Position numbers and translations under genes: made by a program
In this document: piece after piece, positions 1,890 to 55,390 of the stretch
Numbering within the stretch: position 1 is the first letter of the stretch
How the letters are laid out: every line of letters starts with the position of its first letter
Assembly: GCA_045612185.1 (NCBI GenBank)
Contig: JAZKYO010000045.1
Coordinates: 18,389-82,388, forward strand
DNA: 64,000 nucleotides
Reading direction: 5' to 3'
DNA from: Eubacteriales bacterium
Lineage (GTDB): Bacteria > Bacillota > Clostridia > Oscillospirales > CAG-272
Notes under the pieces: model-generated
Told to the model about the DNA's origin: nothing
Database searches by the model: none
The model's input: the letters and a program-made list of their open reading frames with translations, nothing else

Positions 1890-1928
1890 AAAATACCCCT
1901 TTAATAAAAATTTTATAGAAGCTTCCAT

Positions 1929-2345
1929 TTTTCCAAGGTTATCACAAAAGCCGCAAAAGCTCCAAAAGCCTTATACGCCAAGCCTTTTGACGCAAATCCC
2001 ACATAAAGTAACCGCGACGAAGCTCGTCACGGCAAGGCTCTTGAGGGTCTCCTTAACAGATACTTCAAGGCGTAAAAGGTTTTATATGGGGGGACTGCGG
2101 AGCCAGTTCGCCTAAGGTTGATAGGCTGGTGGTGCAATTCCACCGCCCCCACTCATATAAAACCCAAGTAACATAAGTCTTTATAGCACCGAAGAGCGAC
2201 CGCAAGGTCGCTCTTCTTTTATGCCTTTTTAAGCCTCAAATTCGGCTTTTTATGGAAAAAGTATGGAACTTTCCACATCCCAAAATGAGCAAAATAGAAG
2301 TCAAAATGGAAGTCAAAATGGAAGTCAAAATGGAAGTCAAACCGG
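1929..2345 (+). repeat. Modular intergenic repeat, copy A (modules X, tRNA-like stretch, terminator form 2, M, 12-nt tract x4)
   Basis: Shares AAGCCTTATACGCCAAGCCTTTTGACGCAAATCCCACATAAAG with copies E, J and B. The hairpin GAAGAGCGACC/GGTCGCTCTTC (2191-2216, then TTTT) is shared with copies F and G. TATGGAACTTTCCACATCCCAAAATGAGCAAAAT is shared with B. Confidence 0.7.
2291..2338 (+). repeat. Tandem 12-nt repeat, AAAATGGAAGTC x4 (first unit AAAATAGAAGTC)
   Basis: Read directly: four contiguous 12-nt units. The same tract has 2 units in copy B (5074-5097) and about 1.5 in copy E. Confidence 0.9.
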
Positions 2346-2365
2346 AATCTTTAAAATATCTCCGT

Positions 2366-2557
2366 TCAGTCCCCTTGAGCGGGGAAATGCTCTTCTATAG
2401 CAAGCCTTACGCCAAGCTTGAAAGCATACGCCAAAAGCTCCCTCTCGCTGATTCCTATAAGCTCATTGTAGCAGTTATCGAACTTCTCAAGGATCTCCTT
2501 CTGCTTGTCACGTAGCGTCTCTCTAAGCTTATCATGATGCTCTGCTACGTAGCCCAT
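2366..2557 (-). CDS. Small helical hypothetical protein (63 aa), mobile-element associated
   Basis: ORF with a GAGG RBS about 8 nt upstream. MGYVAEHHDKLRETLRDKQKEILEKFDNCYNELIGISERELLAYAFKLGVRLAIEE resembles small helical proteins seen in Clostridia conjugative elements. Function unknown. Confidence 0.4.
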   Translation of the reverse strand: MGYVAEHHDKLRETLRDKQKEILEKFDNCYNELIGISERELLAYAFKLGVRLAIEEHFPAQGD

Positions 2558-2700
2558 AAGCAGCCTCGGCTGATTTTCCTTTCTTCCTCTATCTTTTATC
2601 GGACATATGTTGCCGTAGTTAAACTACTCAATATCTATCGCAGATTCCGGTGTTTGCGAATAAGGGGAGAAAAGTGTTGCCCCCAAAAACGCATAGCTTT

Positions 2701-3522
2701 TTATTCGTTCTCTCGGGCGATCCGTCGGTATTCGCTGGGGGAGATTCCCTCGTTTTCGGTGAAGAAGTGGCTGAAGGCATAGATGTCGTAAAAGCCAAGC
2801 ATCTCGGCCACCTCGCCCACGCGGAACTCGCCCACACGCAAAAGACTTCTTGCGGCGGTGTGAAGCAGATGTTTTTTGTAGGACATAGGTGGCATACCCA
2901 CGGCGGCTTTGAATACGCGCCGAAGCTGGGATTGGCTGAGATGGCAAAGATCTGCCAACTCCGCCGCAGTTATCGGCTCTGTGTAATGCTCTTCCAAGTA
3001 TCGGAGCGCAATCGATGCCGCACGCTCGGTGTTTTTGTATGGCTCGTCGTGGCCGCCCTCGGAGCATAGCGCGAAAATGCGGAGCAGCTCGGATGCCGCT
3101 AAAAAGTGGGCGCTTGGCTTGTTGGTTGAATGGGCGGCAATCACGGATTTCATTGCGTATTTTACCGAGCTTTTGTCGATGGTTGACACCAAGAGCGGGT
3201 GGTCGGAAAAGGATAGGGGTGAGCCGCTTCGGGCGTCGGTCAGCGCGAATTCGATTTGTAAGGTTTGCACAGATCCATTGCCCGCATCGGAGATGAAATA
3301 GGAATAGGGAACGCTCCCCGCAGGCAGGTAGATCAGTTCTCCCGCGTGGGCGGTAAAGCTTTCGCCCCGTGACAAATAGGTATAAGCCCCCCGAACCACG
3401 AATAAAAAGCCATTGTAAGGACGATGGGTGATGCGGTTTTCGAGAATGCGAGGTGTGTATGACATGGCAAGCTGTATGTTGAAAAGCACTTTCGAAGGAT
3501 CAAAAGAAAAGAAAGAATTCAT
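2701..3522 (-). CDS. AraC/XylS family transcriptional regulator (cupin sensor + HTH)
   Basis: The C-terminus has the AraC HTH signature (...ITAAELADLCHLSQSQLRRVFKAAVGMPPMSYKKHLLHTAARSLL...FYDIYAFSHFFTENEGISPSEYRR). I prefer the start at MNSFFSF (3522), which has an AGGAGG RBS, over the tracked 3621. Confidence 0.85.
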   Translation of the reverse strand: MNSFFSFDPSKVLFNIQLAMSYTPRILENRITHRPYNGFLFVVRGAYTYLSRGESFTAHAGELIYLPAGSVPYSYFISDAGNGSVQTLQIEFALTDARSGSPLSFSDHPLLVSTIDKSSVKYAMKSVIAAHSTNKPSAHFLAASELLRIFALCSEGGHDEPYKNTERAASIALRYLEEHYTEPITAAELADLCHLSQSQLRRVFKAAVGMPPMSYKKHLLHTAARSLLRVGEFRVGEVAEMLGFYDIYAFSHFFTENEGISPSEYRRIARENE

Positions 3523-3696
3523 TTCAGCCTCCTGTAGATTTAATACTGCCATTATAACACGTGCCCTTGTTTGTGTCAACAAAAATGCGCACTTTTTGCA
3601 AAAAAAGGCTGCTTTTTGCATTTGATTTTCTCGTTTTGTATGGTATAATGCAATAAAGAAAACATTAAAAGTTCAAAACGGAACGGAGAAAATCAA

Positions 3697-4800
3697 ATGA
3701 ATCCTATGTATGGAACCTCGGTGTATTGCGGTATCGGCATTGAGCTTGCGCAGATCAAGGCGCATCTTGAAATGGCAGCAAGCCTCGGCATTAACACCGT
3801 TTTTACATCTTTGCAGTTACCCGAGGCGGATAAGGCTACCGTCTTGCGTGATTTTTACAAAATGTCAGAGATCGCTCACAGCCTTGGAATGAAGGTGGAG
3901 GCGGACGTCGCCACGCGCACAGCGGTGCAGTTTGGCATTGATCTTCACGACCTTTCCGCCATTAAAGAGATGGGCGTGGATTTTGCAAGACTTGACGGTG
4001 GCTATACGATGGAGCAGACCGTGGAGGCTACCCACAATGATCTTGGTATGCAAATCGTTCTTAACGCCGGAGAGGTCACGAGAAAAAAGCTGGAGCAATA
4101 CGAGTTTCTCGGCATTAACAAGGAGCAAGCACATTTCTGCCATAATTTTTATCCTATGCGCTATACAGGTCTGCAGCCCGAACGGGCGCAGGAGATCAAC
4201 GCACTGATCCATGAATACGGCTACCGCGTGACGGGCTTTATCCCTTCGCACAACCACAAGCGCATTGGCGTGAGCTTGGGACTTCCCACAGTAGAACGCC
4301 ACCGCATCATGGACACCTTTACCGCCATCGAGGAGTGTAAAATTCTTGGATTTGACGATATTTTCTTTGGTGACGATCTGGCATCAGAGAAGGAGCTCCG
4401 TATGCTTGTGGAGCGCGATCCCGCCGTCATTACCCTTCGTATGATCCCCGAGGTGGAAGGGGAAGCTATGGACTGGCTCCTCGGACGTGAGCTTCGCCAG
4501 TTCCAGGAAGACCTTCCCGAGATCATTCGGACAAAGTCTCTCAGTTCCGATAATCATTCCGATTCTTCTTTCCATGGTGATTGTGAGGAAGGCATCGTGG
4601 AAGAGCGGCGTCGCGGTGACGTTTCTATGTGCAAAGCCGCGCTTCTTCGCTATGCGGGAGAGGTGCAGATCGCGCGAATGGATCTTCCCGCCGATCCCGA
4701 TATTGGGCGCCTCGGTCGCATTGTCGACGAGGATCTGCCGCTTCTTGAAACCTTCCGCAACAGGGCACACTTCCGATTGATCCGCGCAGAGGAAAAGTAA
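3697..4800 (+). CDS. DUF871 / MupG-like (6-phospho-N-acetylmuramidase family) protein
   Basis: 367 aa. The N-terminus YGTSVYCGIGIELAQIKAHLEMAASLGINTVFTSLQLPE matches the DUF871 TIM-barrel start (S-V-Y ... FTSLH-I-PE). It is divergent from the AraC gene. Confidence 0.55.
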   Translation: MNPMYGTSVYCGIGIELAQIKAHLEMAASLGINTVFTSLQLPEADKATVLRDFYKMSEIAHSLGMKVEADVATRTAVQFGIDLHDLSAIKEMGVDFARLDGGYTMEQTVEATHNDLGMQIVLNAGEVTRKKLEQYEFLGINKEQAHFCHNFYPMRYTGLQPERAQEINALIHEYGYRVTGFIPSHNHKRIGVSLGLPTVERHRIMDTFTAIEECKILGFDDIFFGDDLASEKELRMLVERDPAVITLRMIPEVEGEAMDWLLGRELRQFQEDLPEIIRTKSLSSDNHSDSSFHGDCEEGIVEERRRGDVSMCKAALLRYAGEVQIARMDLPADPDIGRLGRIVDEDLPLLETFRNRAHFRLIRAEEK

Positions 4801-4802
4801 AA

Positions 4803-5185
4803 ACAAGAAGTCTTACATTACAAGCCTTTTGATGCCAGATATTTCAGGTAATCCCCTGTCGGTGCGGCTGGTCGCTTGCGACCTTGTGAGCGAAGCGGGC
4901 AAGAGGCTTCGCCCCTTACGCACCAAGGCTTGTGCGAACATAACTTAACGCAATACGACAGACGGTGTCTAAACAACACCGCCTGTCTTTTTTCTGTCCT
5001 CAAGCCGCATTTTAGGCTCAAAATCTCCAAATTTGTGGAACTTTTATGGAACTTTCCACATCCCAAAATGAGCAAAATGGAAGCTGAAATGGAAGCCGAA
5101 CCGAAAACTTTCCATTGTAGCTTTATTATATCAAAAAAGCCCATTCTCGCGAATAGGCTTTTTTCGTTGTTTGCGGAATTGTATA
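4803..5185 (+). repeat. Modular intergenic repeat, copy B (X partial, S double hairpin 4861-4924, terminator form 1, M, 12-nt tract x2, Z)
   Basis: Terminator stem 4957-4968/4976-4987 plus T6 lies right after the 3697..4800 gene. A second A6-hairpin-T6 structure is at 5133-5164. Long identical runs are shared with copies C, D and E. Confidence 0.8.
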
Positions 5186-5340
5186 GTTCTTGAAAACGAG
5201 GATTTTGTCTATCCTCTTTTTGTCATCCTCATTTTCGCCTCATTTTGAGGCTTTTTTATTTTTTTACATATCTTTTCTTCACTGCATAGAAAAAGAGCTG
5301 CCTCAGATGCTCTTAAATTTGCATTTGAGACAGCCCCTTT

Positions 5341-10012: not shown

Positions 10013-10402
10013 ATGAGAGAGAAAAATCAAGTAGTTTTGCCGTTAGATTTAGGGATTTGTATCCCAGAAGGAGATTTTGTATTCAAAGTAGCGGAAATTT
10101 GTGAGAGCTTGGACTACACGGAGCTGTTCAACACGTATTTGCGAGTTTGGAGAAAAGTGAATCCCATCACAATGTTCGAGGTCATTGTTTATGGGTATAT
10201 GAAGCATCTGTATTCAGGGAGAGAAATAGCCGAAGCTTGCAAAACGGATATACGCTTTATGTGGCTCTTAAACGGAGAACCTGCGCCAAGTCACGCAACG
10301 ATCTCAAGATTTGAGGATGAGAGATTAGTTTACGCTTTAAGGTATCTGTCAAGCGGTTTCTGCAAACCTTGCCGCAACGAGTTTTGTCGCGTTTTATATT
10401 GA
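10013..10402 (+). pseudogene. IS1182/IS5-type transposase N-terminal fragment (IS remnant)
   Basis: VLPLDLGICIPEGDFVFKVAEICESLDYTELFNTYLRVWRKVNPITMFEVIVYGYMKHLYSGREIAEACKTDIRFMWLLNGEPAPSHATISRF matches the conserved N-terminal domain of IS1182-family transposases. The ORF then decays and stops at 129 aa, with no DDE domain. Confidence 0.6.
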
Positions 10403-10476
10403 CTTTTTGTCGGACATATGATACTATGATATACTGAACATAAAATTATGTTAAATGATGTGCAAAGGAGAAATTT

Positions 10477-12489: not shown

Positions 12490-12740
12490 CGGCTTGTCAG
12501 AAAACAGATACTTCAAGGTGTAAGCAGCTGCCGGTGCGGCTGGTCGCTTGCGACCTTGTGAGCGAAGCGGGCATAAGGCTTCGCCCCTTACGCACCAAGG
12601 CTTGTGCGAACATAGCAGGACGCAATACGACAGACGGTGTCTAAACAACACCGCCTGTCTTTTTTATGCCTTATTTTACTCAAAATAGCCCAATTTATGG
12701 AACTTTTATGGTGATTTCCATTTCTTAAAAACGTGAAGCG
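12490..12740 (+). repeat. Modular intergenic repeat, copy C (S double hairpin 12533-12596, terminator form 1, M)
   Basis: Terminator stem 12629-12640/12648-12659 plus T-run. Module S is identical to copy B except for two loop bases. Confidence 0.8.
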
Positions 12741-12770
12741 GAAGTGTTTAAGGGAATATAGTTTGGGAGT

Positions 12771-16445: not shown

Positions 16446-16585
16446 AGCAGGGCGCAATACGACAGACGGTGTCTAAACAACACCGCCTGTCTTTTTTCTG
16501 TCCTCAAGCCGCATTTCAGGCTCAAAATTTCCAAATTTGTGGAACTTTTATGGAACTTTCCACACCCCTATTATATCAAAAAAGA
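16446..16585 (+). repeat. Modular intergenic repeat, copy D (terminator form 1, M, start of Z)
   Basis: Terminator stem starts at 16461, T-run at 16492-16497. GTGGAACTTTTATGGAACTTTCCAC is identical to copy B. Confidence 0.8.
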
Positions 16586-16668
16586 ATATTCTAACGAAGG
16601 GGGCGGATCTCTTTATGCTTTCGCTGAAAACGCGTGTTCTGATGACATGTGATGATGAATCCAATGTC

Positions 16669-22759: not shown

Positions 22760-22897
22760 TTTAATACTTCCAAAAGAAGAGCGACCTTGAGGTCGCTCTT
22801 CTCTTATGCCTTTTGGGACTCAAAATAGCCTCAAGTTATAGAACTTTCCACACCTTATTATATTAAAAAAGCCCATTCATGCGAATAGGCTTTTTTG
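22760..22897 (+). repeat. Modular intergenic repeat, copy F (terminator form 2, M, Z)
   Basis: Hairpin GAAGAGCGACC-TTGA-GGTCGCTCTTC (22776-22801); CTCAAAATAGCC; GAACTTTCCAC; A6-GCCCATTCATGCGAATAGGC-T6 (22865-22896). Confidence 0.75.
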
Positions 22898-23146
22898 TCA
22901 ATGAGTAACGGCCATAAGTTCGTTTTTGTCGTACGGTCTGTGCGATTCTAACAAGATTTTATATAGCAAAATAGACTTAAAAAGCATTCATAAGCGCTAT
23001 TGCGTAGCAGGGCGCGTAGCAAATGGAGCGAGGTTGCGTAGCAGAAATAACATTTTGGATTAATTGAAGATATGCGGTATGTGTGTGCATAACGCACAAT
23101 ACCAATAGGAGAAATTTGGATATTGCGCTAAAAAAACCCTTTTCTA

Positions 23147-23548
23147 TTGACTTTTATAGTGAATAGTGCTTTTGATACAGCAGAATCCGAATCTGACGAT
23201 ATTGAGCAAGCTATTCTCCGTTTGTACTGCAACTGGCTGAACACCGATCAAAAAGAAGTTAACAGCAGAGATATAAACATTTATGCTTGCGACGCAAGCT
23301 GGACTGATTCAGAATCATTTACTAAAGCGAACGCCCCAATGCTTTGTGGTAAGATTCTCGATGTCGAGACTACGGCTTTTAAATCTGCTTCTTGGATAGA
23401 GTTTGATGTTACCGAATACGTTAAGGCTCACAAAGGAGAGAAAATCTCATTTGCCATTTTAAATGAAGGTACTGTAACAGACGAAAATCATATTGAATTC
23501 TACTCAATGGAAAAAGCGGGCTATGTGCCTCAGCTTGTAATTTCTTAA
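23147..23548 (+). pseudogene. DNRLRE-type carbohydrate-binding domain fragment (no signal peptide, TTG start)
   Basis: INIYACDASWTDSESFTKANAP...WIEFDVTEYVKAHKGEKISFAIL parallels the second half of the DNRLRE domains in 23820..26075 and 55392..58706 (FDIYWVDENWDPDTVTWNTKPD...). The N-terminal half and export signal are missing. Confidence 0.4.
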
Positions 23549-28491: not shown

Positions 28492-28668
28492 TATGAGAAC
28501 ATAAAATATGTCACTTGACGGAGGACTTGTAGGAAGCATTCAACCACACGAAGATAACTTCCAATATCATTTAACGCTAAGAATTACGCTGACCGGAGAG
28601 TAAGAATATATACGTCCGAGAGCGGAGCATTTACCTGTGATCTTATTTGCGCTTCGGTTGAATATTTG

Positions 28669-28975
28669 TGGAAGCTTCCATTTTTCATAAGCTTATAGGC
28701 AAATTCATAAAGCTCACAAAGCCTTACACGACAAGCCTTTTAATGCCAAGCTTACATAAAGCAACTGCAACGAAGCTCCACGCACCAAGGCTTGTGCGAA
28801 CATAGCAGGGCGCAATACGACAGACGGTGTCTAAACAACACCGCCTGTCTTTTTTCTGTCCTCAAGCCGCATTTTAGGCTCAAAATCTCCAAATTTGTTG
28901 AACTTTTATGGAACTTTCCACTTCTCAAATAGAGCAAAATGGAAGCTAAAATGGATTTTTTCCATAGGCTATTAT
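28669..28975 (+). repeat. Modular intergenic repeat, copy E (X, 3' part of S, terminator form 1, M, 12-nt tract about 1.5 units)
   Basis: GGAAGCTTCCATTTTT and AAGCCTTTTAATGCC (module X, as next to the integrase fragment in copy A). Terminator stem 28819-28830/28838-28849 plus T-run. AAAATGGAAGCTAAAATGGA. Confidence 0.75.
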
Positions 28976-33527: not shown

Positions 33528-33560
33528 AAAGGCAACGGCTAAATACCGTTGCCTTTCCTT
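33528..33560 (+). terminator. Rho-independent terminator of 30367..33441
   Basis: AAAGGCAACGG-CTAAATA-CCGTTGCCTTT, followed by CCTTTTT. Confidence 0.7.
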
Positions 33561-33680
33561 TTTGTTTTAAGCCGCGAAACTCGGAACTTGAATCGGAATT
33601 CTTTCCCATACCTTATTATATCAAAAAAGCCCATTCTCGCGAATAGGCGTTTTTTCGTTGTTTGCGAAATTGTTGTGATT
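33561..33680 (+). repeat. Modular intergenic repeat, copy H (partial M, Z)
   Basis: CTTATTATATCAAAAAAGCCCATTCTCGCGAATAGGCGTTTTTTCGTTGTTTGCGAAATTGT is almost identical to the Z module of copies B and I. Confidence 0.75.
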
Positions 33681-35051: not shown

Positions 35052-35235
35052 TATTCAGACTCCTATGTATAGATTTCCTATATTTTACCATTTTTTAAAA
35101 GTCAATATTCTTTTGCTTTTTTTGTATCTGTTTCTGCGGCAAACCAAAAATTAGTATTGCAAAAATGAGTTCGAATCATATGCCCAAATTACAAAGTATC
35201 GCATTGCCAAAAATCTTCCGGTTTGCACTCGCCGC

Positions 35236-36009
35236 TTACGTTGCTTTATAGTCCTTAGGCGCACACCCTACGCGGCAGGTGAATTCTCTTGAAAAATGCG
35301 AGGGATCCATGTATCCGCACGCCTCCGCCACCTGTCCCACCGAGAGGGCCTCATACGCCAAAAGCTGCTTGGCATATCTGATGCGCAGGGAAATGATATA
35401 ATCCTTCGGTGAGGTACCGAATCTCATAAAAAACAGCTTGCGGAAATATACCTCGCTGATGCCGCAAAGAGCGGCCAACGACGCCACCGTAAGTTCAGGA
35501 TCGGTAAATGACGCGGAAATACGTTCTACCGCGGGCTCGATCAATTGATATTGGGCGTTGGTCTGATATTTCCGCCTTCCTTCTTCAACAAGTTGAAGCA
35601 AGATGTCATATACCGCTTTTTTGGCGGTCAGACAGCGGCAGTCGCTTTGCGTGCGCCATTCCTTTTCAGCAGTTTTGAAGATCTTGACCAGCTTTTCGCT
35701 GTTTCGAAAATGCAATGAAAACGGCTCGCACCAAAAGTCCTCCTCCACCTCAAAATTGATGGCGTAGCATCCACCTCTCGTTTTGGTTTTTACATAATAA
35801 GACGAGCCTTTGGGCAGATAAAACAGGTCACCGCCCGCGGTTTTCATTTCTCTTCCGTCGGAAAAAACGTAGGTCTTTTCGGAGTCTTCGTCGTTCAGCA
35901 CGAAGCCGTGGGACGGACGGTCCTTATGCACAATCCTCCCCGTGTCTGCCTTTACGTATACCACCACGTCGATCTTCTTTACCGTAAGTGAATCCCACTT
36001 GTCAAACAT
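35236..36009 (-). CDS. AraC/XylS family transcriptional regulator
   Basis: 257 aa. ...LTVASLAALCGISEVYFRKLFFMRFGTSPKDYIISLRIRYAKQLLAYEALSVGQVAEACGYMDPSHFSREFTCRVGCAPKDY. Confidence 0.85.
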   Translation of the reverse strand: MFDKWDSLTVKKIDVVVYVKADTGRIVHKDRPSHGFVLNDEDSEKTYVFSDGREMKTAGGDLFYLPKGSSYYVKTKTRGGCYAINFEVEEDFWCEPFSLHFRNSEKLVKIFKTAEKEWRTQSDCRCLTAKKAVYDILLQLVEEGRRKYQTNAQYQLIEPAVERISASFTDPELTVASLAALCGISEVYFRKLFFMRFGTSPKDYIISLRIRYAKQLLAYEALSVGQVAEACGYMDPSHFSREFTCRVGCAPKDYKAT

Positions 36010-36035
36010 AGCATCACCTCAAATTTATTATAAGG

Positions 36036-36096
36036 TGCTGTTTCGATTTTGTCAAGTGTTTATTATAGAATGTTGTTTCGATTTCGTCAAGTGTTT
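36036..36096 (+). promoter_or_regulatory. Two 26-bp direct repeats, candidate AraC-family activator site
   Basis: TGCTGTTTCGATTTTGTCAAGTGTTT (36036-36061) and TGTTGTTTCGATTTCGTCAAGTGTTT (36071-36096) have a 35-bp period and end 11 nt before the -35 of the 36210 promoter. Direct-repeat half-sites abutting the -35 are the classical AraC/XylS layout. Confidence 0.5.
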
Positions 36097-36107
36097 TGCT
36101 TTTTCTA

Positions 36108-36135
36108 TTTACATTTCAGGGGAACGTGTTATAAT
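36108..36135 (+). promoter_or_regulatory. Promoter of 36210..37634
   Basis: TTTACA (36108-36113), 16-nt spacer, TGtTATAAT (TATAAT 36130-36135). Confidence 0.5.
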
Positions 36136-36209
36136 AGGAACAATGGCGATGATGCGTAACGTGTCGGCGCTTACGATTACGAATGTGCAATTATTGCGGA
36201 GGGTATAGC

Positions 36210-37634
36210 ATGGAACATTCACTGAATTTCTTTGGAAATGAGTTGGCTGAAAAATTTTCGAAAATCGTCAATACAAGCTTCAACGATATGGAAGGGCTTT
36301 TGCTTGTGCGCAACCGAGAGGATCCGCTTTACGGATATTGCTACCAAGCATTGCCCGGCTTTGGCGGCCGCAATTCCATGTGGTGTCGCGATATGGGAAC
36401 GCTCATTCGCGAGTTGGCGCTTTACGGTCGTCTTGACAGTGCGTGTGCTCTTTCTTCCTGTTTGATTGACCGTGTGGGACTGAATGTGGACGGCTATTAC
36501 ACCTTCCCCCGATTTTTTACTCAGGTCGAGTACGGAAAAAGCGGCGATGAGCTTGACGGCACGGGTGCGATTGTAATCGGGCTGATCCTGCTTTGGGAGC
36601 GTCTTTCGGACGATTGCCCCACGAAAAAGAAAATAAGAGATTTTTTGGAATGCAAAGCCTCCCCCATCCGTTGGATTCTGTCCAAACTCAAAGACAAAAA
36701 ATTGATTGAGGGAACGGGTGAATTTGGCTCGGGATATACCATTGAGTCGCCAAGCTGCAATGCGGTACAGAATAATCTTGTCAGGCTGTCTCTGATCGGC
36801 GGTGCTGATTTCTTCGCCGCTATCGGTGAGAAAGGGCTTTCGGGCGAGTGCCTTAAGGCTTCACGGATCATAGAGGAAAACATTTGCCGCTATCTGATCA
36901 AGGACGGCAAACTTGTCTGGTGCGTTGACCCCGAAACCCTTGAACCCAACCCCGAAATCATAGGAGCGGAGATCAACAGAGGCACGACATTTATTAACGG
37001 TGTCTACGTTATGTCCGCGGATATATTGGGTCTTGGTTTTACCAAAGAGGATGCGCCCCTTTACCGCGCGGGTGAGAATACCTTTGACGATCTGATGGAA
37101 CGTCCCCTGCGCAAGGCGCTTTTTGAAAAATACGGAATGTATCAGCAATTCGACGATTTCTGGAAGGGCTTTACGGGTCCTGCCTACGGACACGGCTACG
37201 CTATGCAGTTTGCCGCATTGACGGGACGTCGCGCTCTTTTGAACCGGTTGCTCGGTTATTTTGTTGACTACACCATCAACCCCGATCCCCTGCCCAACAA
37301 GTTGGTGCGAGAGTCTCCGTACTGGATCTACGAGCGGTATTACGTTCCCGAAGCCTTGGATTTCGGAACGATCCCAGAGGCCTCCTGCGGACCGCTTACC
37401 ATCGTTTGTGTGACCGAGATCCTCAAGGTGGCGCGACTGATTGCGGGCATCGACCACGTAACGGGCGAGATCAAGCCCACACTTCCCGAAGGTTGGAGCG
37501 GCTTTTCTGCCAAGGGATTCCCTATGCTGAAGGACGGTAAGACGGTGATGTGCGACATTGAGTACCGTATTGACGGCGACGGTAAGGTGTCGCTTGAGGT
37601 GAAGCATCAAACGTCTGACGCAACATCACAATAA
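36210..37634 (+). CDS. Hypothetical protein, possibly a helical (alpha/alpha)-barrel glycosidase-like protein
   Basis: 474 aa from ATG 36210 (GGAGGG RBS). I recognise no diagnostic motif. The position between an AraC gene and GH genes suggests a carbohydrate-active role. Confidence 0.35.
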   Translation: MEHSLNFFGNELAEKFSKIVNTSFNDMEGLLLVRNREDPLYGYCYQALPGFGGRNSMWCRDMGTLIRELALYGRLDSACALSSCLIDRVGLNVDGYYTFPRFFTQVEYGKSGDELDGTGAIVIGLILLWERLSDDCPTKKKIRDFLECKASPIRWILSKLKDKKLIEGTGEFGSGYTIESPSCNAVQNNLVRLSLIGGADFFAAIGEKGLSGECLKASRIIEENICRYLIKDGKLVWCVDPETLEPNPEIIGAEINRGTTFINGVYVMSADILGLGFTKEDAPLYRAGENTFDDLMERPLRKALFEKYGMYQQFDDFWKGFTGPAYGHGYAMQFAALTGRRALLNRLLGYFVDYTINPDPLPNKLVRESPYWIYERYYVPEALDFGTIPEASCGPLTIVCVTEILKVARLIAGIDHVTGEIKPTLPEGWSGFSAKGFPMLKDGKTVMCDIEYRIDGDGKVSLEVKHQTSDATSQ

Positions 37635-37645: not shown

Positions 37646-37933
37646 ATGGAATTCATTTTGGGATGTAACTATTGGGCGTCCAATGCGGGCGCGGATATGT
37701 GGCGTGATTTTGATATCGAGTGCATTGACAAGGATATAAGGATTCTCAGCGAGTACGGCGTGAAGCATATGCGAGTGTTTCCCAACTGGCGGGATTTTCA
37801 ACCGGTAGAGCCGATTCTCGGTGGCAGTGGCGTTTTGCTGGGATACACCGTCAAAGAGCAACCGATTTCGTCAAGTGGTTTTGCTTTTATCATTTACAAA
37901 AGCCTAAAAAATGATATAATGTATGTGAGGTGA
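37646..37933 (+). pseudogene. 5' fragment (first about 74 codons) of a paralog of the clan GH-A gene at 43713
   Basis: MEFILGCNYWASNAGADMWRDFDIECIDKDIRILSEYGVKHMRVFPNWRDFQPVEPILGGSGVLLGYTVKEQPI matches 43713.. at 67 of 74 residues, with many synonymous DNA differences. Similarity ends at about 37866 and the frame runs into promoter-like DNA. Confidence 0.75.
37893..37920 (+). promoter_or_regulatory. Promoter of the GRE-2 operon (duplicated copy of the 36108 promoter region)
   Basis: TTTACA (37893-37898), 16-nt spacer, TGaTATAAT (TATAAT 37915-37920). The segment 37863-37898 is about 90% identical by eye to 36079-36113. Confidence 0.55.
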
Positions 37934-42805: not shown

Positions 42806-43690
42806 ATGACTTTTGAAAAATACGGAACCTCGCCCGTTTTCGGAAACGCCGATACAGGCACCGTGTTCGACGGCTACGTCTGGGTGGATGGCGGAAGATA
42901 CAGAATGGACTTCTCCTGGCGCGGAAAAAAGGCGTGCGCCGTAACCTTCAGCGACGACGGGATCCATTGGAGCGAGCCTGTCATCACCCTTGCCAACGAT
43001 CTCGCAACGGGTTGGGAGGACGATCTGAACAGAAACTGCGTACTGAAGGTAGGAGACGTATACAAAATGTGGTACACCGGGCAGGCGCGCGGTTACAGTT
43101 ACATCGGTTATGCGGAGAGCAGTGACGGAATACACTTTGAGCGCCGGTCCACCGAGCCGATCATAATTCCCGAACTGCCCTGGGAGCGTGAGTCTGTAAT
43201 GAACCCCTGCGTTTTATTTGAGAACGGCGTATACCGTATGTGGTATTCTGCGGGCGAAACTTACGAGCCTAACGTAAACGCATACGCTGAGAGCGTCGAC
43301 GGTATCCATTGGATAAAGAGCCGTATAAACCCCATTTTCACAAAAAACAAACATAACGTATACGAGCAGAACCGTGTTGGAGGTTGCCACGTCATTCACA
43401 CGGAGGATATGGGATATCTTATGTTCTATATAGGCTATGAGGACATTAACACGGCTCGCATCTGCGTGGCGAGAAGCAAGGATGGTATTCGGGGCTGGGA
43501 GCGTTCCTCTCTCAATCCCCTTATCGAGCCTACCGCGGGAAGTTGGGACAGTGAAGCGACCTACAAGCCTACGGTGGTGTGGAACGAAAAGGACGGAAAA
43601 TGGATGCTTTGGTATAACGGCAGGACGGAAAACAGAGAATATATGGGCTATGCCTACCGAAACGGTAGAGATCTTTTTCCCGAAACGTAG
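42806..43690 (+). CDS. Five-bladed beta-propeller glycosidase-like protein (GH43/GH117/GH130/GH32 superfamily)
   Basis: 294 aa with five repeats of the pattern [YF]-x-[MF]-W-Y ... S-x-DG-I-x-[WF] (FSDDGIHWSEP, AESSDGIHFER, AESVDGIHWIK, RSKDGIRGWER, KWMLWYNG). No signal peptide. Confidence 0.5.
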   Translation: MTFEKYGTSPVFGNADTGTVFDGYVWVDGGRYRMDFSWRGKKACAVTFSDDGIHWSEPVITLANDLATGWEDDLNRNCVLKVGDVYKMWYTGQARGYSYIGYAESSDGIHFERRSTEPIIIPELPWERESVMNPCVLFENGVYRMWYSAGETYEPNVNAYAESVDGIHWIKSRINPIFTKNKHNVYEQNRVGGCHVIHTEDMGYLMFYIGYEDINTARICVARSKDGIRGWERSSLNPLIEPTAGSWDSEATYKPTVVWNEKDGKWMLWYNGRTENREYMGYAYRNGRDLFPET

Positions 43691-43712: not shown

Positions 43713-45560
43713 ATGGAATTTATTTTAGGATGCAATTATTGGGCATCAAACGCCGGTGCCGATATGTGGCGTGATTTTGATATTGAGTGCATTGACAAGG
43801 ACGTCCAGATCCTCAGTGACTACGGCGTAAAGTATATGAGAGTGTTTCCCAACTGGCGGGATTTTCAACCCGTAGAGCCTGTTTTGGGTGGCGGCGGTGT
43901 TCTTTTGGGATATACAATAAAGGAACAGCCTATACCCGATAATCCGTATTATCTTGACACCGAGATGCTTGATAAATTTTCCTTGTTTCTCGACGTTTGT
44001 AAAAAGTACAACATCAAGATTATTGTGGGGCTTATTACAGGCTGGATGAGCGGAAGGCTTTTTGTTCCTCCCGCTTTGTACGGAAAAAACGTGATCTCAT
44101 CGCTTACGGCGCAGTACTTTGAACAGCTTTTTATAAAGGGCTTTATCGAGCGCTTCATTGACAGAGAGGAAATTTATGCGTGGGATCTCGGAAACGAGTG
44201 CAACTGTACGGGCGGTGCCGAAAACCGCTGGGAAATCGCAAGCTGGGTTGCAATGATGACAAACGCCATAAAAGCCGCCGACAGCAGCCGCCCCGTGATT
44301 TCGGGTATGCACGAGCTTTATGTGGCGCAGAAAAAATGGACGATTGCCGACCAAGGGCTTTACGTGGATATGCTTACTACCCACCCATATCCGTTCTGGT
44401 GTCAGCATACAGGCATTGACGAAACTCTGTCTTTAAGAACAACCATGCACGCCACCGCGCAAACAAAGCTTTATGCCGAAATCGGCGGAAAGCCCTGCCT
44501 TGCCGAGGAGATAGGAACTATGGGACCTTCGATTTGCAGTGAAGAAAAGGCGGCAGACTTTTTGAGAGTGAATATGTTTTCTTTGTGGGCTAACGGCGCC
44601 GGCGGAGTAATGTGGTGGTGCGCCCACGACCAGAATGAGCTTGAAAGCAACCCCTACAGCTATCAGATGGTTGAAAGGGAACTTGGTATGCTTTACAATG
44701 ACCGCACACCCAAGCCCGTGCTAGGGGAAATGAAGAAATTCTCCTCTTGGATTGACAAACTTGATTTCAAGCTGCCTGCGGCACAGACCGATGCGGTTTG
44801 CCTGCTGACACGAGACCAAAACCACTGGGGCGTGGCTTACATGACCCACATACTTTGCAAAAAGGTGGGGCTTAACTGCAGATTTGCTTATGCCGATAAT
44901 CGACTTCCCGACTCAAAGCTTTACATAATGCCCTCAATAAGCGGTATTCAGATCATGCCCAAGAGCAGATACGACGAGCTGAAAAAGAGGGTTCGCGAGG
45001 GCGCTGATCTGTACATATCCTGCGGCAATGCGGTGTTAAGCGAATTTGAGGAGCTTACGGGGCTTAAGGTGATGGATTCCTATACGTGTAACGAATCCTT
45101 TAATGCGCAGATAGGTGACGAAAGTATCGCCTTTTCCCGTCCGAGAACTGTGACTGTCAAGCCTGTTTCTGCTGAGGTACTTGCATACGACAGCAATAAT
45201 AATCCTTTTGTTTCGGTAAACAAATACGGTAAGGGCAGAGTGTTTTTTGTAAACGCACCGATTGAAGGTAATCTCATTGAAAAGCACAACGCATTTGACG
45301 GCAATACGCATGTTGTGTACCGCAAAATTTTTGCGGATCACATAAATAATTACCCCGTAGAGCTTTCAAACAAGGATATTGTATTTACCTATCATCCCGT
45401 AAAGGACGGCGGATACGTTGTGGCGCTTAACCACTATGACGAGGAAAAGGAATTTGCCCTTAAGCTTAGTGACGGCTATTCGGTAGATAAGATCTATCAC
45501 GGCGATACGCGGAAAATCAATCCCTTTGACGCTTGCGTGTTCAAAATAGTAAGAAAGTAA
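43713..45560 (+). CDS. Clan GH-A TIM-barrel glycoside hydrolase with GH42-like C-terminal domain
   Basis: 615 aa from MEFILGCNYWASNAG. The tracked ORF start at 43437 would overlap the upstream gene. WDLGNECN (acid/base) and CLAEEIGT (nucleophile). Confidence 0.65.
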   Translation: MEFILGCNYWASNAGADMWRDFDIECIDKDVQILSDYGVKYMRVFPNWRDFQPVEPVLGGGGVLLGYTIKEQPIPDNPYYLDTEMLDKFSLFLDVCKKYNIKIIVGLITGWMSGRLFVPPALYGKNVISSLTAQYFEQLFIKGFIERFIDREEIYAWDLGNECNCTGGAENRWEIASWVAMMTNAIKAADSSRPVISGMHELYVAQKKWTIADQGLYVDMLTTHPYPFWCQHTGIDETLSLRTTMHATAQTKLYAEIGGKPCLAEEIGTMGPSICSEEKAADFLRVNMFSLWANGAGGVMWWCAHDQNELESNPYSYQMVERELGMLYNDRTPKPVLGEMKKFSSWIDKLDFKLPAAQTDAVCLLTRDQNHWGVAYMTHILCKKVGLNCRFAYADNRLPDSKLYIMPSISGIQIMPKSRYDELKKRVREGADLYISCGNAVLSEFEELTGLKVMDSYTCNESFNAQIGDESIAFSRPRTVTVKPVSAEVLAYDSNNNPFVSVNKYGKGRVFFVNAPIEGNLIEKHNAFDGNTHVVYRKIFADHINNYPVELSNKDIVFTYHPVKDGGYVVALNHYDEEKEFALKLSDGYSVDKIYHGDTRKINPFDACVFKIVRK

Positions 45561-45660
45561 TTATAGCACCGAAGAGCGGTCACGTGACCGCTCTTCTTTT
45601 ATGCTTTGTTTTCTTAAAATAGCCTCAATCTATTGAACTTTCCACTTCTTCTGAGGCTAA
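45561..45660 (+). repeat. Modular intergenic repeat, copy G (terminator form 2, M)
   Basis: TTATAGCACCGAAGAGCGGTCACGTGACCGCTCTTCTTTTATGC (hairpin 45571-45596 then TTTT) parallels copy A at 2181-2224. Then AAAATAGCCTCAA and TTGAACTTTCCAC. Confidence 0.75.
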
Positions 45661-45677
45661 TCGGAGCTTCAGTTAAA

Positions 45678-45717
45678 TTATGCAAAATTGTGCAAAATTG
45701 TGCGGAATTGTGCAAAA
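45678..45717 (+). repeat. Four tandem 10-bp repeats (TTGTGCAAAA-like) upstream of the promoter
   Basis: TTATGCAAAA TTGTGCAAAA TTGTGCGGAA TTGTGCAAAA has one helical turn per unit and ends 14 nt before the -35. It is related to the GTTTGCGGAATTGT end of module Z. Confidence 0.85.
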
Positions 45718-45731
45718 TGGCAATTTTGGTA

Positions 45732-45760
45732 TTGACAAAGTATTTCTTATATGGTATAAT
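45732..45760 (+). promoter_or_regulatory. Consensus extended -10 promoter of the 2065-aa protein gene
   Basis: TTGACA (45732-45737), 17 nt, TGgTATAAT (TATAAT 45755-45760). Confidence 0.65.
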
Positions 45761-52071: not shown

Positions 52072-52128
52072 AATCAAATTGCTGATTGTTTGTGAAGTGA
52101 ATTATAAACAGTTTACAAAGAAAGCAAA

Positions 52129-52165
52129 AACCTCCTATGGCATAAAGCCATAGGAGGTTTATTTT
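52129..52165 (+). terminator. Rho-independent terminator of the giant gene
   Basis: AACCTCCTATGGC-ATAAA-GCCATAGGAGGTT (13-bp perfect stem), followed by TATTTTT. Confidence 0.8.
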
Positions 52166-52280
52166 TCATTGTTTTAAGATGAGCAAACCGGAAGCTTTCC
52201 GCTGTAGCTTTATTACATTAAAAAAGCCCATTTTTGCTAATAGGCTTTTTTCGTTGTTTGCGGAATTGTTGCGTTTTTGC
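52166..52280 (+). repeat. Modular intergenic repeat, copy I (partial M/V, Z)
   Basis: CCGGAAGCTTTCCGCTGTAGCTTTATTACATTAAAAAAGCCCATTTTTGCTAATAGGCTTTTTTCGTTGTTTGCGGAATTGT parallels 5100-5182 of copy B. Confidence 0.75.
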
Positions 52281-52284
52281 AATA

Positions 52285-53010
52285 TTAAGACGGATGTTGT
52301 TTGCGGTACTGAAGCGGCGAAAGACCGATGTGCTTTTTAAAGCAGGTGGAAAAATAAAATGAGTCGCGAAAGCCGCACTTAGTAGAAATACTCTCGATGC
52401 TTTCGTAAGGATTAATGATCAACAGCTGCTGTGCGCGGGCGATGCGAAGATCAATGAGATAATTATGCGGCGTTTTTTGTGTTTTTGCCTTGAAGCATCT
52501 TCTCATATAGTCTGTATTGTAGCCTATATTTTTAATTGCTTCGGTAAGATCAAAGTCGCAATTTTCAAGATTTTCAAGAATTGTATTTTTCAAAAGCTCT
52601 ACTATGGAATTCTGATTTTCTTTAGAGGAAAAGCGTTTTGCGTATTGAATCAATGCATCCAAAAGACTGCCGGCGATACGTTGATAATTGTCCTCTTTTT
52701 TATTCATAATTCCATGGATCATCCAAGCCAGTGACTCTGTATAGGATTCGTTGTCATGAAGTACGAGAGGTTGGGAGATATCCGTAGAATCGCAATGAAT
52801 TACCAAATCGAAAAACTGTCCTTGAGAATAATCGGAATGAAATATTTCAGGGGGAACACAATAAAGATCACCCTTGGATACCATATAAGTTCTATCACCT
52901 ATCGTGGTGTGACTGTCGCCGCAAAGGCGATAAACGATCTCGAGACAACCGTGCTTATGTTTTGATGAACGGGAAATATCAGAATTTATTAAAGAAAACA
53001 AAACCTTCAT
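52285..53010 (-). CDS. AraC/XylS family transcriptional regulator
   Basis: C-terminus: ...LTEAIKNIGYNTDYMRRCFKAKTQKTPHNYLIDLRIARAQQLLIINPYESIESISTKCGFRDSFYFSTCFKKHIGLSPLQYR. Preferred start is MKVLFSL (53010). Confidence 0.85.
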   Translation of the reverse strand: MKVLFSLINSDISRSSKHKHGCLEIVYRLCGDSHTTIGDRTYMVSKGDLYCVPPEIFHSDYSQGQFFDLVIHCDSTDISQPLVLHDNESYTESLAWMIHGIMNKKEDNYQRIAGSLLDALIQYAKRFSSKENQNSIVELLKNTILENLENCDFDLTEAIKNIGYNTDYMRRCFKAKTQKTPHNYLIDLRIARAQQLLIINPYESIESISTKCGFRDSFYFSTCFKKHIGLSPLQYRKQHPS

Positions 53011-53275
53011 ACTCTTACCTCTCAATTATAGCCCCATAATAACATAAAAGGTCGGTTTTGTCAAGATTTTGGTCTGCATATAATATTCACTTTTGGCTCA
53101 ATCGTGTTTATAATGGATATATCACCTGGGTTTTGCGAGAGACGCTGTAGTTTTAAATGGTTCACTATCTTACAGGGGCGGGTATTCTTATTCACTTCTT
53201 CACGATGTGGGCGATGCTTACGGCGGTTTCCGTTGGGCGGTTATCTGAGAGCATATACTTTACAAGGAGGTACAT

Positions 53276-55228
53276 ATGTGCGGAAAATGGATATGGAGAT
53301 ATAGAGATTTTGAGTTTTATAACGCAAAAAAATATTTACTGGCGCGTGAAGAAAGAGGAAAAAAGGTTCCGGCTTTTTATGAAATCCCCCATTATTCAAC
53401 CTCGGTAAGATTTTCTAAGACAGTCAGTCTTGCAAAAAGCGAAATTATAAGTATAACGTCAGACGGAGATGCGTGTATATCTATTGACGGAGAACGAATT
53501 AACGGATGCGATAGCTTCGTTATGCCCGAAGGAGAACACAGACTCCTGATCGCTGTAGGAAATGATGAGGGAATGTGTGCGTTGTTGGTTGAAGGAGAAA
53601 CTGTTTTTTCTGATGAAAGCTGGATTGCCGATTCTTACGACGGTATTTGGGAGCCTGTCGGTACCTCAAGGCTTTGTTTCGACAAAAACACGTTGCCTTC
53701 GAATTACTCGTTTCCCGAAAAAGAGGTTAAAATAGCCGCAGACAAAACAAACGGAAACGAACGAATTATTGATTTCGGAATAAATACCTTTGTCAGAATC
53801 GAACTTAAAAACGTAGAGACGGACATTAAAATATTCTATGGCGAAAGCATTGAGGAAACCTATAGTGACAGATGTGTTATTTTGGATTCGGTTGCAAAAT
53901 GTGATTTTGTATCGCTTCCGGAGCGAGCTTGCCAATTTGTCCGCTTTGTCGGTGCTACGTCTTTTGAGATTAAAGCATTTAATCCATATAATCCCATAAA
54001 TGATATTTCTCACTTCGAGTGTGACAGCGAACTTTTAAACAGGATATATGACGTATCAAAATATACACTGTCTCTGTGTTCAAGAATGTTTTGGCTTGAC
54101 GGAATAAAACGTGACAGATGGCCTTGGGCGGGAGACGCTTATATAACCGCAAAAATGGATATGTATTCATTCTTCGACACTGATATTGCAAGAAGAACGC
54201 TTATAGCGCTCAGAGGGAATACAGACGTAAAGATGCCGGTGAATAATATTCTTGAATATTCGTTTTATTGGTTTTTGCTTCTTAGGGATTATTATTTTAA
54301 TACAGGCGATAAAAGCTTTGTTGAAAAGAACTATATTTACGCCAAACGCCTTATTGAATACTACATCAAGAGAACAAATAAATACGGATTTATTCCTCCT
54401 GTGAGCGGTGTTTGGCTGTTTATTGACTGGCATGATATGGACAAAGCGGGCGATGTTTGCTGTGTCCAGATGTTGTACGGAAAAGCACTTGAATGTATGG
54501 CTGAATTTGCGAAAATATGCGGTAAGAATGATGAAAGCGCATATTTTGCTTCTCTTTACCGTGAGCTTGCCGATAAAATAAACGAACATTTTTGGAACGG
54601 TACGGCGTATGTTTCAGTTCTGAAAAACGGTGTTCGCTCCGAGCAGATCAGACGGCATCAGAATTATTTTGGAATTTTGTTTGGTTACGCTAACGAAGAA
54701 AAAACAAAATCTATTATAGATAACGTCTTGTTAAATGATGAGATTCCTTATATTACAACCCCATTTTTCAAATTCTTTGAGTACGACGTTCTTTTTAAAT
54801 GCGGATATTTTGATAAGGCATTTGAAGGAATAAAGGAGTATTGGGGCGGAATAGTCAATTTAGGCGCGTCAACCGTTTGGGAGGAATTTGATCCTAACAT
54901 GAACGGGACAGAACATTACGCAATGTACGGTGAGCCTTTTGACAAAAGCCTATGTCACGCGTGGGGCGCGGGTCCGATTTATTTTATAGGCAGATATCTG
55001 GTTGGGTTGCGTCCCACCGATATTGGTTATAAATCGTTTGAATTGGAACCTAAACTCAATATCGGTAACTATAAAGCTGCACTTCCGATTATGAATGGTT
55101 GTGTCAAGATAGAAGTCAAAGACGGCAATCTTACTGTGGTTTCCGATGTCGACGGCGGTATATTGAAGGCAAAAGGAAAAATTATTGAGCTGAAAAAGAA
55201 TGACAAGGTCAATGTATATTACCATTAA
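53276..55228 (+). CDS. GH78-like alpha-L-rhamnosidase family (six-hairpin) glycoside hydrolase
   Basis: 650 aa. DGIKRDRWPWAGDAY (compare D-x-P-x-R-[DE]-R-x-G-W-x-GD) and the C-terminal TVWEEFDP...SLCHAWGAGPIYFIGRYLVGLRP. AGGAGG RBS. Confidence 0.6.
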   Translation: MCGKWIWRYRDFEFYNAKKYLLAREERGKKVPAFYEIPHYSTSVRFSKTVSLAKSEIISITSDGDACISIDGERINGCDSFVMPEGEHRLLIAVGNDEGMCALLVEGETVFSDESWIADSYDGIWEPVGTSRLCFDKNTLPSNYSFPEKEVKIAADKTNGNERIIDFGINTFVRIELKNVETDIKIFYGESIEETYSDRCVILDSVAKCDFVSLPERACQFVRFVGATSFEIKAFNPYNPINDISHFECDSELLNRIYDVSKYTLSLCSRMFWLDGIKRDRWPWAGDAYITAKMDMYSFFDTDIARRTLIALRGNTDVKMPVNNILEYSFYWFLLLRDYYFNTGDKSFVEKNYIYAKRLIEYYIKRTNKYGFIPPVSGVWLFIDWHDMDKAGDVCCVQMLYGKALECMAEFAKICGKNDESAYFASLYRELADKINEHFWNGTAYVSVLKNGVRSEQIRRHQNYFGILFGYANEEKTKSIIDNVLLNDEIPYITTPFFKFFEYDVLFKCGYFDKAFEGIKEYWGGIVNLGASTVWEEFDPNMNGTEHYAMYGEPFDKSLCHAWGAGPIYFIGRYLVGLRPTDIGYKSFELEPKLNIGNYKAALPIMNGCVKIEVKDGNLTVVSDVDGGILKAKGKIIELKKNDKVNVYYH

Positions 55229-55282
55229 GCATATAGGCATACATATAGCCCCGTATGCCATTTTAAAACTGATATACACGCG

Positions 55283-55360
55283 ATTGAAGCTTCCGGTTTT
55301 TAAGGCTACCCAAAAGCTTACAAAGTCTTATACCGCAAGCCCCTTGATGCAAATCCACAA
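55283..55360 (+). repeat. Modular intergenic repeat, copy J (module X only)
   Basis: TGAAGCTTCCGGTTTTTAAGGCTACCCAAAAGCTTACAAAGTCTTATACCGCAAGCCCCTTGATGCAAATCCACAATAAAT aligns with 1918-2012 (copy A, next to the integrase fragment) and with 28669-28765. Confidence 0.6.
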
Positions 55361-55361
55361 T

Positions 55362-55390
55362 AAATATCCCCCGTTTTACGGGGGATATTT
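55362..55390. terminator. Bidirectional terminator between convergent genes
   Basis: AAATATCCCCC-GTTTTAC-GGGGGATATTT has A/T-rich flanks on both sides and lies between 53276..55228 (+) and 55392..58706 (-). Confidence 0.7.

Follow-up and report, generated by a model that had tools for sequence, protein, structure and literature searches.

The 64,000-nucleotide stretch analysed here (hereafter the window; Eubacteriales bacterium, contig JAZKYO010000045.1, positions 18,389 to 82,388) contains, between 1.9 and 55.4 kb, ten copies of one mosaic repeat family, which are set among units encoding regulators and carbohydrate-active enzymes (CAZymes). We conclude that these copies are very probably the eroded hybrid attachment (att) junctions of elements encoding a tyrosine integrase (Int), which would have accreted serially at the 3′ end of a reverse rubrerythrin gene (rbr) before their backbones decayed. 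This conclusion is carried by the identity of the modules that make up the copies, by the linkage of Int to rbr in other loci, by the occurrence of the same modules directly after an intact rbr gene and by similar arrays in three other metagenome-assembled genomes (MAGs).

One family of co-oriented mosaic repeats

An initial annotation of the window, made from its letters alone, had listed ten copies (A to J) in a single orientation. Repeat finding over the whole window confirms all ten on the plus strand, at or near the positions proposed there. Most of the proposed extents also hold, but copy J reaches further left, to 55221, copy G runs to about 45730 and takes in a 10-mer tandem, and copy H comprises 33574–33680. 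The last 8.6 kb of the window (55.4–64 kb) is free of copies by both repeat finding and pattern scans.

The copies are built from shared modules, termed X, S, M and Z, together with terminators of two types and a 12-nt ATGGAAG tandem tract. Repeat families D1, D3, D5 and D6 connect copies A, B, C, D and E, whereas families D7, D9 and D11 correspond to module Z of copies B, F, H and I, and D8 and D13 to the type-1 terminator plus M in copies A, F and G. The M pattern matches the window exactly five times (0.00 expected in shuffles) and the Z pattern four times, always on the plus strand (0.00 expected), while GAACTTTCCAC has six exact matches, every one of them on the plus strand. Tandem Repeats Finder recovers the ATGGAAG tract noted by the initial annotation, with 4.3 repeats of the 12-mer CAAAATGGAAGT in copy A and 2.2 in copy B; it also reports TTTATGGAACT with 2.2 repeats in each of copies B and D, and 4.4 repeats of AAATTGTGCA in copy G.

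An rbr 3′ end inside the repeats

Alignment of the copies shows that their content exceeds terminator hairpins and includes the tail of a protein-coding gene. The protein encoded by window positions 2013–2069, in copy A, is 100% identical to the C-terminus of an intact 200-aa reverse rubrerythrin (positions 1821–2423 of L013; loci from other contigs carry our L or P numbers), and the nucleotide identity between the copy A fragment and L013 is 96.5%. The L013 protein combines an N-terminal rubredoxin CxxC pair with a ferritin-like domain, and its gene has an Rrf2 regulator upstream. The same stretch also matches a gene annotated as 'NADH peroxidase' in Vescimonas fastidiosa (82.5%).

Direct repeats of the 3′ end of the target gene are present at several of the junctions: the fragment is complete in copy A and partial in B (the last five codons), C (a diverged tail) and E (the first ∼25 nt). 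All ten copies share one orientation, as expected of junctions that take theirs from the target gene. In L013, which lies on a contig of a related MAG (JAZSPB010000101.1), the stop codon of the intact rbr gene is followed directly by a type-1 terminator, M, ATGGAAG repeats and a Z-like segment, the same order as in the window copies, and further junctions in the same orientation (L007) come after these modules on that contig. The only match in a plasmid database was the Vescimonas rbr gene, with no int as its neighbour, and a literature search on rubrerythrin as an integration site found nothing relevant.

These findings bear on the alternative raised by the initial annotation, namely a dispersed, non-autonomous, terminator-carrying intergenic repeat that colonises operon ends in the manner of bacterial interspersed mosaic elements (BIMEs), BOX elements or miniature inverted-repeat transposable elements (MITEs). 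The copies do resemble E. coli BIMEs and repetitive extragenic palindromic (REP) sequences, and pneumococcal BOX elements, in being mosaic and modular, in following stop codons and in containing hairpins and terminators. However, those repeats are spread genome-wide in both orientations and contain no gene fragments, whereas the window copies hold coding pieces of int and rbr, are clustered in one co-oriented array and are missing from 55.4–64 kb. They also lack terminal inverted repeats and target duplications, and in the Genome Taxonomy Database (GTDB), true copies occur in three MAGs only, with two of the loci on the rbr-carrying contig. Because the copies are clustered, co-oriented and accompanied by gene fragments, we rejected a BIME-, BOX- or MITE-like repeat, which we regard as extremely improbable.

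Linkage of the integrase to rbr in other loci

Next to copy A lies the 5′ end of an int gene. A protein search with a longer N-terminal fragment of the same protein, taken from L007, yielded 227 relatives, many of them on very short contigs, and we examined linkage in 47 loci encoding Int relatives of 40–73% identity (7 IMG/VR viral contigs and 40 metagenome contigs). In 37 of the 47, tblastn detects a C-terminal rbr fragment on the strand opposite to int, and in all of these except L068 and L069 the fragment lies 40–150 nt upstream of the int start. Many of the rbr-linked int genes are full length, with open frames of 409–448 codons. Phage_int_SAM_3 and Phage_integrase domains are present in one of them (Pfam), together with an N-terminal Arm-type segment.

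Several loci preserve both ends of an element. In L018, L022/L026 and L073, an intact rbr gene is followed by an element of 3.7–6.5 kb with int at its far end and then by a co-oriented rbr fragment. Intact gene and fragment flank the element in L069 too, but here int is co-oriented with rbr. The contexts of P0103 and P0070 contain a Fur–rbr gene pair 3–6 kb from int and, ∼150 nt upstream of the int start, a further copy of the rbr 3′ end that is oriented like the intact gene (120 nt at 89% and 65 nt at 95% identity). At loci with a single integration, a plain attR is followed by the native terminator and a host gene.

The linkage across these loci points to the rbr 3′ end as the putative target of this Int clade. 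The layout found in the window, with int start, X and rbr fragment in this order, is the standard attR of the clade. The serial, site-specific addition of cassettes at one locus, as proposed by the initial annotation, is thus supported both by the rbr 3′ end within the repeats and by the Int–rbr linkage elsewhere. No relative of the Int N-terminus was found among INPHARED phages, and DNA patterns for the rbr fragment and for M gave 0 matches in IMG/VR and in JGI metagenomes.

Integrase and resolvase remnants

The int fragment beside copy A (1722–1889, minus strand) consists of the first 56 codons of an Arm-domain tyrosine integrase (MTKTSSGVYQLPNGMWGYRY...), 94.6% identical to the N-terminus of L007 Int (tblastn); the rest of the gene is deleted. 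It is fused to a resolvase fragment (1328–1723, minus strand) that covers aa 99–230 of a small serine recombinase and is 79.5% identical to the 232-aa resolvase of L007 (tblastn, E 6.6e-70). The window int is therefore dead. Copy A had been described as continuous with a degenerate Arm-domain integrase gene; the two do adjoin, but only the 56 codons remain, and these run into the serine recombinase. Copies E and J had both been said to keep the int-proximal module without an int gene; of the backbone, X alone persists in E, and J still holds about 25 int codons (tblastn, 55292–55221, 67% over 24 aa). A site-specific recombinase gene is thus found beside an att site in the window, as a fragment abutting X and core of copy A and as a remnant in J. 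Searches (tblastn) with the backbone open reading frames (ORFs) of seven better-preserved elements detected remnants in the window only within 1328–1895.

Across junctions of different genomes, Int is cut at 56, 154, 158, 207 or 236 aa and joined to differing parts of the resolvase; these varied truncations form a deletion series. A serine recombinase of the resolvase/invertase type (185–232 aa) accompanies the Int clade in most of the loci examined, in either orientation (L007 5591–6289, L018, L022, L040 and L078).

The int-less junctions J (55221), L007 1–110, L011 (∼3031) and L001 (∼7338) retain int remnants of 17–25 codons. Their breakpoints differ and yet cluster within ∼25 nt, just beyond a TGGAAGC motif in the int coding sequence. 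A deletion hot spot could account for this, as could selection that preserves the whole arm. More than any other observation, the clustering hints that selection may still act on the arms and, hence, that int-less units may be mobilised in trans. At copy J, the rhamnosidase ORF (53276–55228) runs into the reverse-strand int remnant and finds its stop codon there (55221–55228), so that its present C-terminus was created by the deletion that removed int.

The remnants also bear on a second explanation, in which the array is a working store similar to an integron or to a cis-mobilizable element (CIME): int-less units of AraC regulator and CAZyme genes would be excised as circles, shuffled and exchanged between genomes by an Arm-domain Int acting in trans at rbr-derived sites. 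The topology resembles that of an integron, with an int remnant that points away from the array, whose co-oriented units all finish with the same site, and eight units are devoid of any backbone remnant. A working store would explain why independent int breakpoints (J, L007a, L011 and L001) fall at codons 17–25, past TGGAAGC, as if the arm were selected, and why modules are 88–98% identical across MAGs despite unrelated cargo. In addition, metagenomes contain near-identical Int fragments of up to 268 aa with a match to the catalytic domain (P0002 and P0003). On the other hand, six of the ten junctions are coreless and others are internally deleted, so most units of the window could not be excised; the resident int is dead, and the junctions are in heterogeneous states, unlike attC sites. 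We consider a working store unlikely and favour largely fixed remains of serial accretion.

Terminators and probable arms

Modules totalling 2.2 kb contain the motif ATGGAAS 13 times, compared with 17 occurrences in the remaining 61.8 kb, an enrichment of ∼20-fold (P about 1e-13). The motif lies on the plus strand to the right of the core (in M and in the 12-mer tract) and on the minus strand in X. Comparable arrangements are seen in relatives of the window elements. At single integrations, an int-proximal arm with repeated TTGTCAC motifs precedes the rbr fragment, after which come the native terminator and then a host gene. Other relatives have a terminator and three to five direct 8–11-mers behind the rbr stop codon, and the same k-mer recurs in the int-proximal arm (GGTGTCC in L022, ATTGTGGCGCG in L018 and TGCAACT in L044). 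In L040, the int-proximal arm has repeats of TTGTACTTTTTTGTGTACT, and part of this sequence recurs ∼700 nt beyond the core.

We read X as the int-proximal arm, and M, the tandem tract and Z as the distal arm of the neighbouring element. The ATGGAAG-type repeats are putative Int arm sites that would be bound by the Arm domain, an assignment based on their likeness to lambda-type att sites. The initial annotation had suspected arm or accessory sites rather than plain terminators, and the duplicated rbr core of an att site inside the repeats supports this.

Rho-independent terminators, which had also been predicted, are borne out by hairpin folds with z scores of −5.3 and −3.95 relative to shuffled sequences. 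Type 1 is found in copies A, F and G and type 2 in copies B, C, D and E, and a further, bidirectional hairpin comes with Z in B, F, H and I. Where stem sequences differ, both sides have changed and pairing is retained (CGACC/GGTCG in A and F, CGGTC/GACCG in G and CAGA/TCTG in L007), which fits continued selection for termination.

Module S had been described as a 64-nt double hairpin. Its fold is no better than those of shuffled sequences (z scores for S and for an insert in copy A range from −0.4 to −1.4). We therefore dropped structured RNA as an explanation for both; the insert (z −1.43) was also negative with Rfam and ARAGORN. Over the whole window, Rfam gave 0 matches at the gathering score, and when copies A and B were scanned by E-value, all matches were weak and terminator-driven, at 15–25 bits against cut-offs of 39–176 bits. 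ARAGORN found 0 tRNA or tmRNA genes in the window, despite the T-arm-like character of the copy A insert.

Arrays in other genomes

Scanning GTDB species representatives with the M pattern gave 17 matches. Six are true copies, in three faecal Eubacteriales MAGs with one to three loci each, and about 11 are chance matches in unrelated phyla. In these three MAGs the modules are 88–98% identical to those of the window and flank units of a minus-strand AraC gene and a plus-strand glycoside hydrolase (GH) gene, with unrelated cargo (GH51, GH78, GH28 and a 743-aa protein). Individual junctions match closely: copy B is 95% identical to a junction of L012 over 288 nt, and copy D is 98% identical to L012 over 113 nt.

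One cargo unit is shared. Window positions 35221–37606 are 93% identical to a unit of AraC and a 475-aa protein that is the first after rbr in L013, and so the same cargo occupies a different array position. The 483-aa cargo protein has homologs (65–88% identity) elsewhere, in settings devoid of nearby modules. Metagenome contigs of 1–5 kb, about the length of one unit, carry most relatives of the Int fragment and of the cargo proteins; such short contigs fit assemblies that break at repeated junctions. A literature search on accretion of CAZyme cassettes in Firmicutes returned nothing relevant.

The comparison between genomes also allows us to weigh local amplification, in which the region downstream of rbr, with an old attR, was copied by unequal crossing-over or slippage and the cargo arrived by transposition or homologous recombination. 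The junctions of copies B, D and E are 94–97% identical to one another, one unit contains a DUF772 transposase fragment, and the unit shared with L013 does not break precisely where the modules end. However, window modules are as close to those of other MAGs as to each other, and the differing lengths of int and resolvase, together with two terminator types, are a better fit to independent elements. Unequal crossing-over duplicates whole units, yet all nine cargo units differ, and accretion at rbr is seen directly in relatives. Local amplification is, in our view, very unlikely.

Proposed route of accretion

We propose that elements with an Arm-domain tyrosine integrase recombine within the last ∼60–95 bp of rbr and that each junction was left where one integrative element abuts the next. 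A full junction would then read, in order, the start of int on the opposite strand, X with its inverted TGGAAGC, the rbr 3′ end with its stop codon, a short 3′ untranslated region, a terminator, and M with the ATGGAAG tract and Z. An element entering the end of rbr has to bring a new end for the gene along with a terminator, so every junction would have a plus-oriented terminator that closes the upstream cargo operon. The ten copies would share their orientation because integration takes place at a single oriented site. Later deletions would have stripped the int–resolvase backbones, leaving 56 codons in A, ∼25 in J, only X in E and none elsewhere, and the outcome would be a series of regulator-plus-CAZyme units, by now mostly fixed. 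That each unit was delivered by its own integration event, and the order of these events, we infer.

Integration, decay to a CIME and accretion constitute an established three-step scheme for streptococcal elements that are integrative and conjugative (ICEs) or integrative and mobilizable (IMEs) (PMC5704250). The mechanism is thus known, whereas the rbr target is without description in the literature that we searched, and the scale and cargo are unusual.

Several observations weigh against serial accretion. The window contains no intact rbr; the array runs off its left end, and its anchoring to rbr here is deduced from L013. A core is present only in copy A and, in part, in B, C and E; the other six copies (D, F, G, H, I and J) have none. 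An integrase of their own is demonstrated just for the two units that end at A and J, and eight of the nine cargo units are free of any trace of int, resolvase or other backbone genes. The better-preserved elements (L018, L022 and L040) carry small ORFs, leucine-rich repeat proteins, helix-turn-helix regulators and a resolvase but no CAZymes. Homology in the shared unit begins off the module edges, from which unique DNA separates it by 370 nt in L013 and by 1.5 kb in the window. Finally, units of AraC and CAZyme genes also occur to the right of copy J, without junctions, so this type of cargo is not exclusive to the array.

Composition of the individual copies

Erosion is graded across the copies, from A, which is nearly complete, to H and I, which retain the end of the distal arm only, and J, which consists of an int remnant and X. 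All coordinates below are on the plus strand.

Copy A begins with X (1915–2012), read as the int-proximal att arm, which includes the TGGAAGCTTCCA palindrome, an inverted ATGGAAS motif at 1922 and the presumed int promoter. X is kept beside the int start in L007, L011, L001 and L078. The core (2013–2075) is the duplicated rbr 3′ end of 19 codons plus stop. It is followed by a private insert (2076–2158), an 83-nt hairpin flanked by TTTTATATG and CATATAAAA with a T-arm/acceptor-like end GGTGGTGCAATTCCACCGCCCCCA; this insert is not part of the family, and the corresponding junctions in L007, L011 and L013 lack it. The distal part (2159–2345), read as the distal att arm of the neighbouring element, comprises the type-1 terminator (2191–2216, z −5.26), M (2234–2285) and the CAAAATGGAAGT tract (2290–2341).

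Copy B (4803–5185) contains the tail of X, the last five rbr codons (CAGATATTTCAGGTAA), S, the type-2 terminator (4958–4986), M, the 12-mer tract and Z, in which the bidirectional terminator is joined by GCGGAATTGT. In copy C (12490–12744), the diverged rbr tail (..AACAGATACTTCAAGGTGTAA) starts 3 nt past the stop codon of a GH36-like gene and precedes S, a type-2 terminator and M. The core is lost from copy D (16446–16600), which has the tail of S, a type-2 terminator, M and part of Z, and likewise from copy F (22760–22900), with a type-1 terminator, M and Z. Copy E (28661–28975) has a complete X and the first ∼25 nt of the rbr fragment, followed by an internal deletion into the tail of S, then a type-2 terminator, M and the tandem tract.

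Copies H (33574–33680) and I (52175–52282) are reduced to the tail of the tandem plus Z and lie just past the own terminators of a 1024-aa and a 2065-aa gene, respectively. Copy G (45548–45730) contains a linker, the type-1 terminator with compensatory stem changes, M and the AAATTGTGCA tandem. This tandem resembles the GCGGAATTGT motif of Z, and it is followed by a perfect TTGACA-17-TATAAT promoter with an extended −10 element ahead of the 2065-aa gene (45675–45760). Copy J (55221–55360), the last junction of the array, combines int codons ∼1–25, with a stop inside, and X.

Cargo units and gene content of the window

Nine cargo units on mixed strands occupy 2346–55220. According to Pfam, they encode AraC and IclR regulators together with glycoside hydrolases (GH2, GH5, GH32, GH36-like, GH113, GH130-like and a rhamnosidase), two glycyl-radical enzymes, sugar kinases, transporters and proteins with carbohydrate-binding modules of family 96 (CBM96). 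The only mobile backbone gene between junctions is the DUF772 transposase fragment (10013–10402).

The claim that every plus-strand unit is capped by a copy is nearly right. Nine genes end in this way (MupG, GH36-like, glycyl-radical enzyme, GH2, PfkB, the 1024-aa gene, GH5, the 2065-aa gene and the rhamnosidase), but H and I trail the genes' own terminators (33528–33556 and 52128–52160), and a CBM96 fragment (23147–23548) has a terminator of its own. One regulator per unit, as the initial annotation had it, is found in six of the nine units and not in the remaining three. The differences in composition between cassettes that it described are real: G+C content at third codon positions (GC3) is coherent within each unit and ranges from 0.38 to 0.62 between units (A–B 0.59, C–D 0.48, I–J 0.38–0.39), which suits separate origins of the units.

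We also note a number of local duplications. A 5′ fragment of a GH5 gene (∼75 codons, MEFILGCNYWASNAGADMWRDF...; 37646–37870) follows the 483-aa gene and shares 81% identity with the beginning of the intact GH5 (43713–43933), whose start is the ATG at 43713 and not that at 43437. L013 has the same arrangement of GH5 fragment and glycyl-radical enzyme, at 73% identity versus 93% in the adjacent block, and this step marks a mosaic boundary. In the divergent promoter region between AraC and the 483-aa gene (36024–36096), a 35-nt unit, TTTATTATAAAATGCTGTTTCGATTTCGTCAAGTG, is repeated 2.1 times and duplicates a near-consensus minus-strand promoter (36055–36027 and 36090–36062). A promoter-like stretch of 45 nt (TTGTCGCGTTTTATATTGACTT..TATGATACTATG) occurs at 10384–10428 and 59726–59770 with 82% identity; the first lies upstream of the GH36-like gene within the array, just after the DUF772 fragment, and the second upstream of an AraC gene outside it. 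A minus-strand protein of 1132 aa has an internal tandem duplication of 564 bp (57499–58499, 74–75% identity) that corresponds to repeated CBM96 domains.

Relation to known systems and implications

The array is closest in kind to tandem accretions of ICEs, IMEs and CIMEs, known examples being ICESt1 and ICESt3 in Streptococcus thermophilus, at the 3′ end of fda, and streptococcal IME/ICE tandems at tRNA-Lys or rpsI (PMC5704250). As in those systems, the 3′ end of a housekeeping gene would serve as the target of a tyrosine integrase, the element would restore the gene end, direct repeats of that end flank the elements, and backbones decay while att sites persist; integration into a resident att site yields co-oriented tandems with chimeric internal att sites. 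In contrast to ICE/IME tandems of two or three elements, the window has at least ten junctions in 53 kb. Its units are small (3–12 kb), nearly free of backbone and without conjugation or mobilisation genes, the cargo is uniformly regulators plus carbohydrate-active enzymes, and the target is a reverse rubrerythrin gene.

Integron arrays (intI, attI and attC) likewise have a recombinase at one end and co-oriented units with adaptive cargo that end in related sites. However, the Int described here has Arm and SAM_3-like domains rather than the IntI fold with its extra domain, and the att sites would be duplexes with arms and a gene-derived core rather than folded single-strand attC hairpins. Moreover, the units (3–12 kb) have their own regulators, promoters and terminators, and most sites are eroded. 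We rejected an integron on the grounds of the SAM_3 domain and Arm-type segment of Int, repeats that are mosaics of 100–430 nt, and units with their own regulators and consensus promoters.

Temperate phages and satellites with lambda-type attP sites share the arrangement of a core flanked by repeated short motifs with int beside the att site, and the Int clade does include prophage integrases, as seen in the IMG/VR contigs and in int remnants among phage tail and lysin genes in L022–L027. In contrast to temperate phages, which also yielded no relative in INPHARED, no unit of the window contains phage genes, and a series of decayed prophages was rejected for this reason.

If serial accretion is correct, a single Int clade and a single site, the end of rbr, would explain a block of more than 50 kb of diverse carbohydrate-degradation genes in gut Clostridia. 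Repeated junctions would account for poor assembly of such regions, with many contigs of 1–5 kb that end in repeats, and terminators supplied by the elements would have been taken over as those of the cargo operons. The rbr 3′ fragment, X and M together would provide a practical marker for islands of this type in metagenomes. With the same junctions surrounding wholly different enzymes in related genomes, accretion at rbr would offer a testable route for the expansion and exchange of CAZymes in Firmicutes, in a role comparable to that of ICEs carrying polysaccharide utilization loci in Bacteroides.

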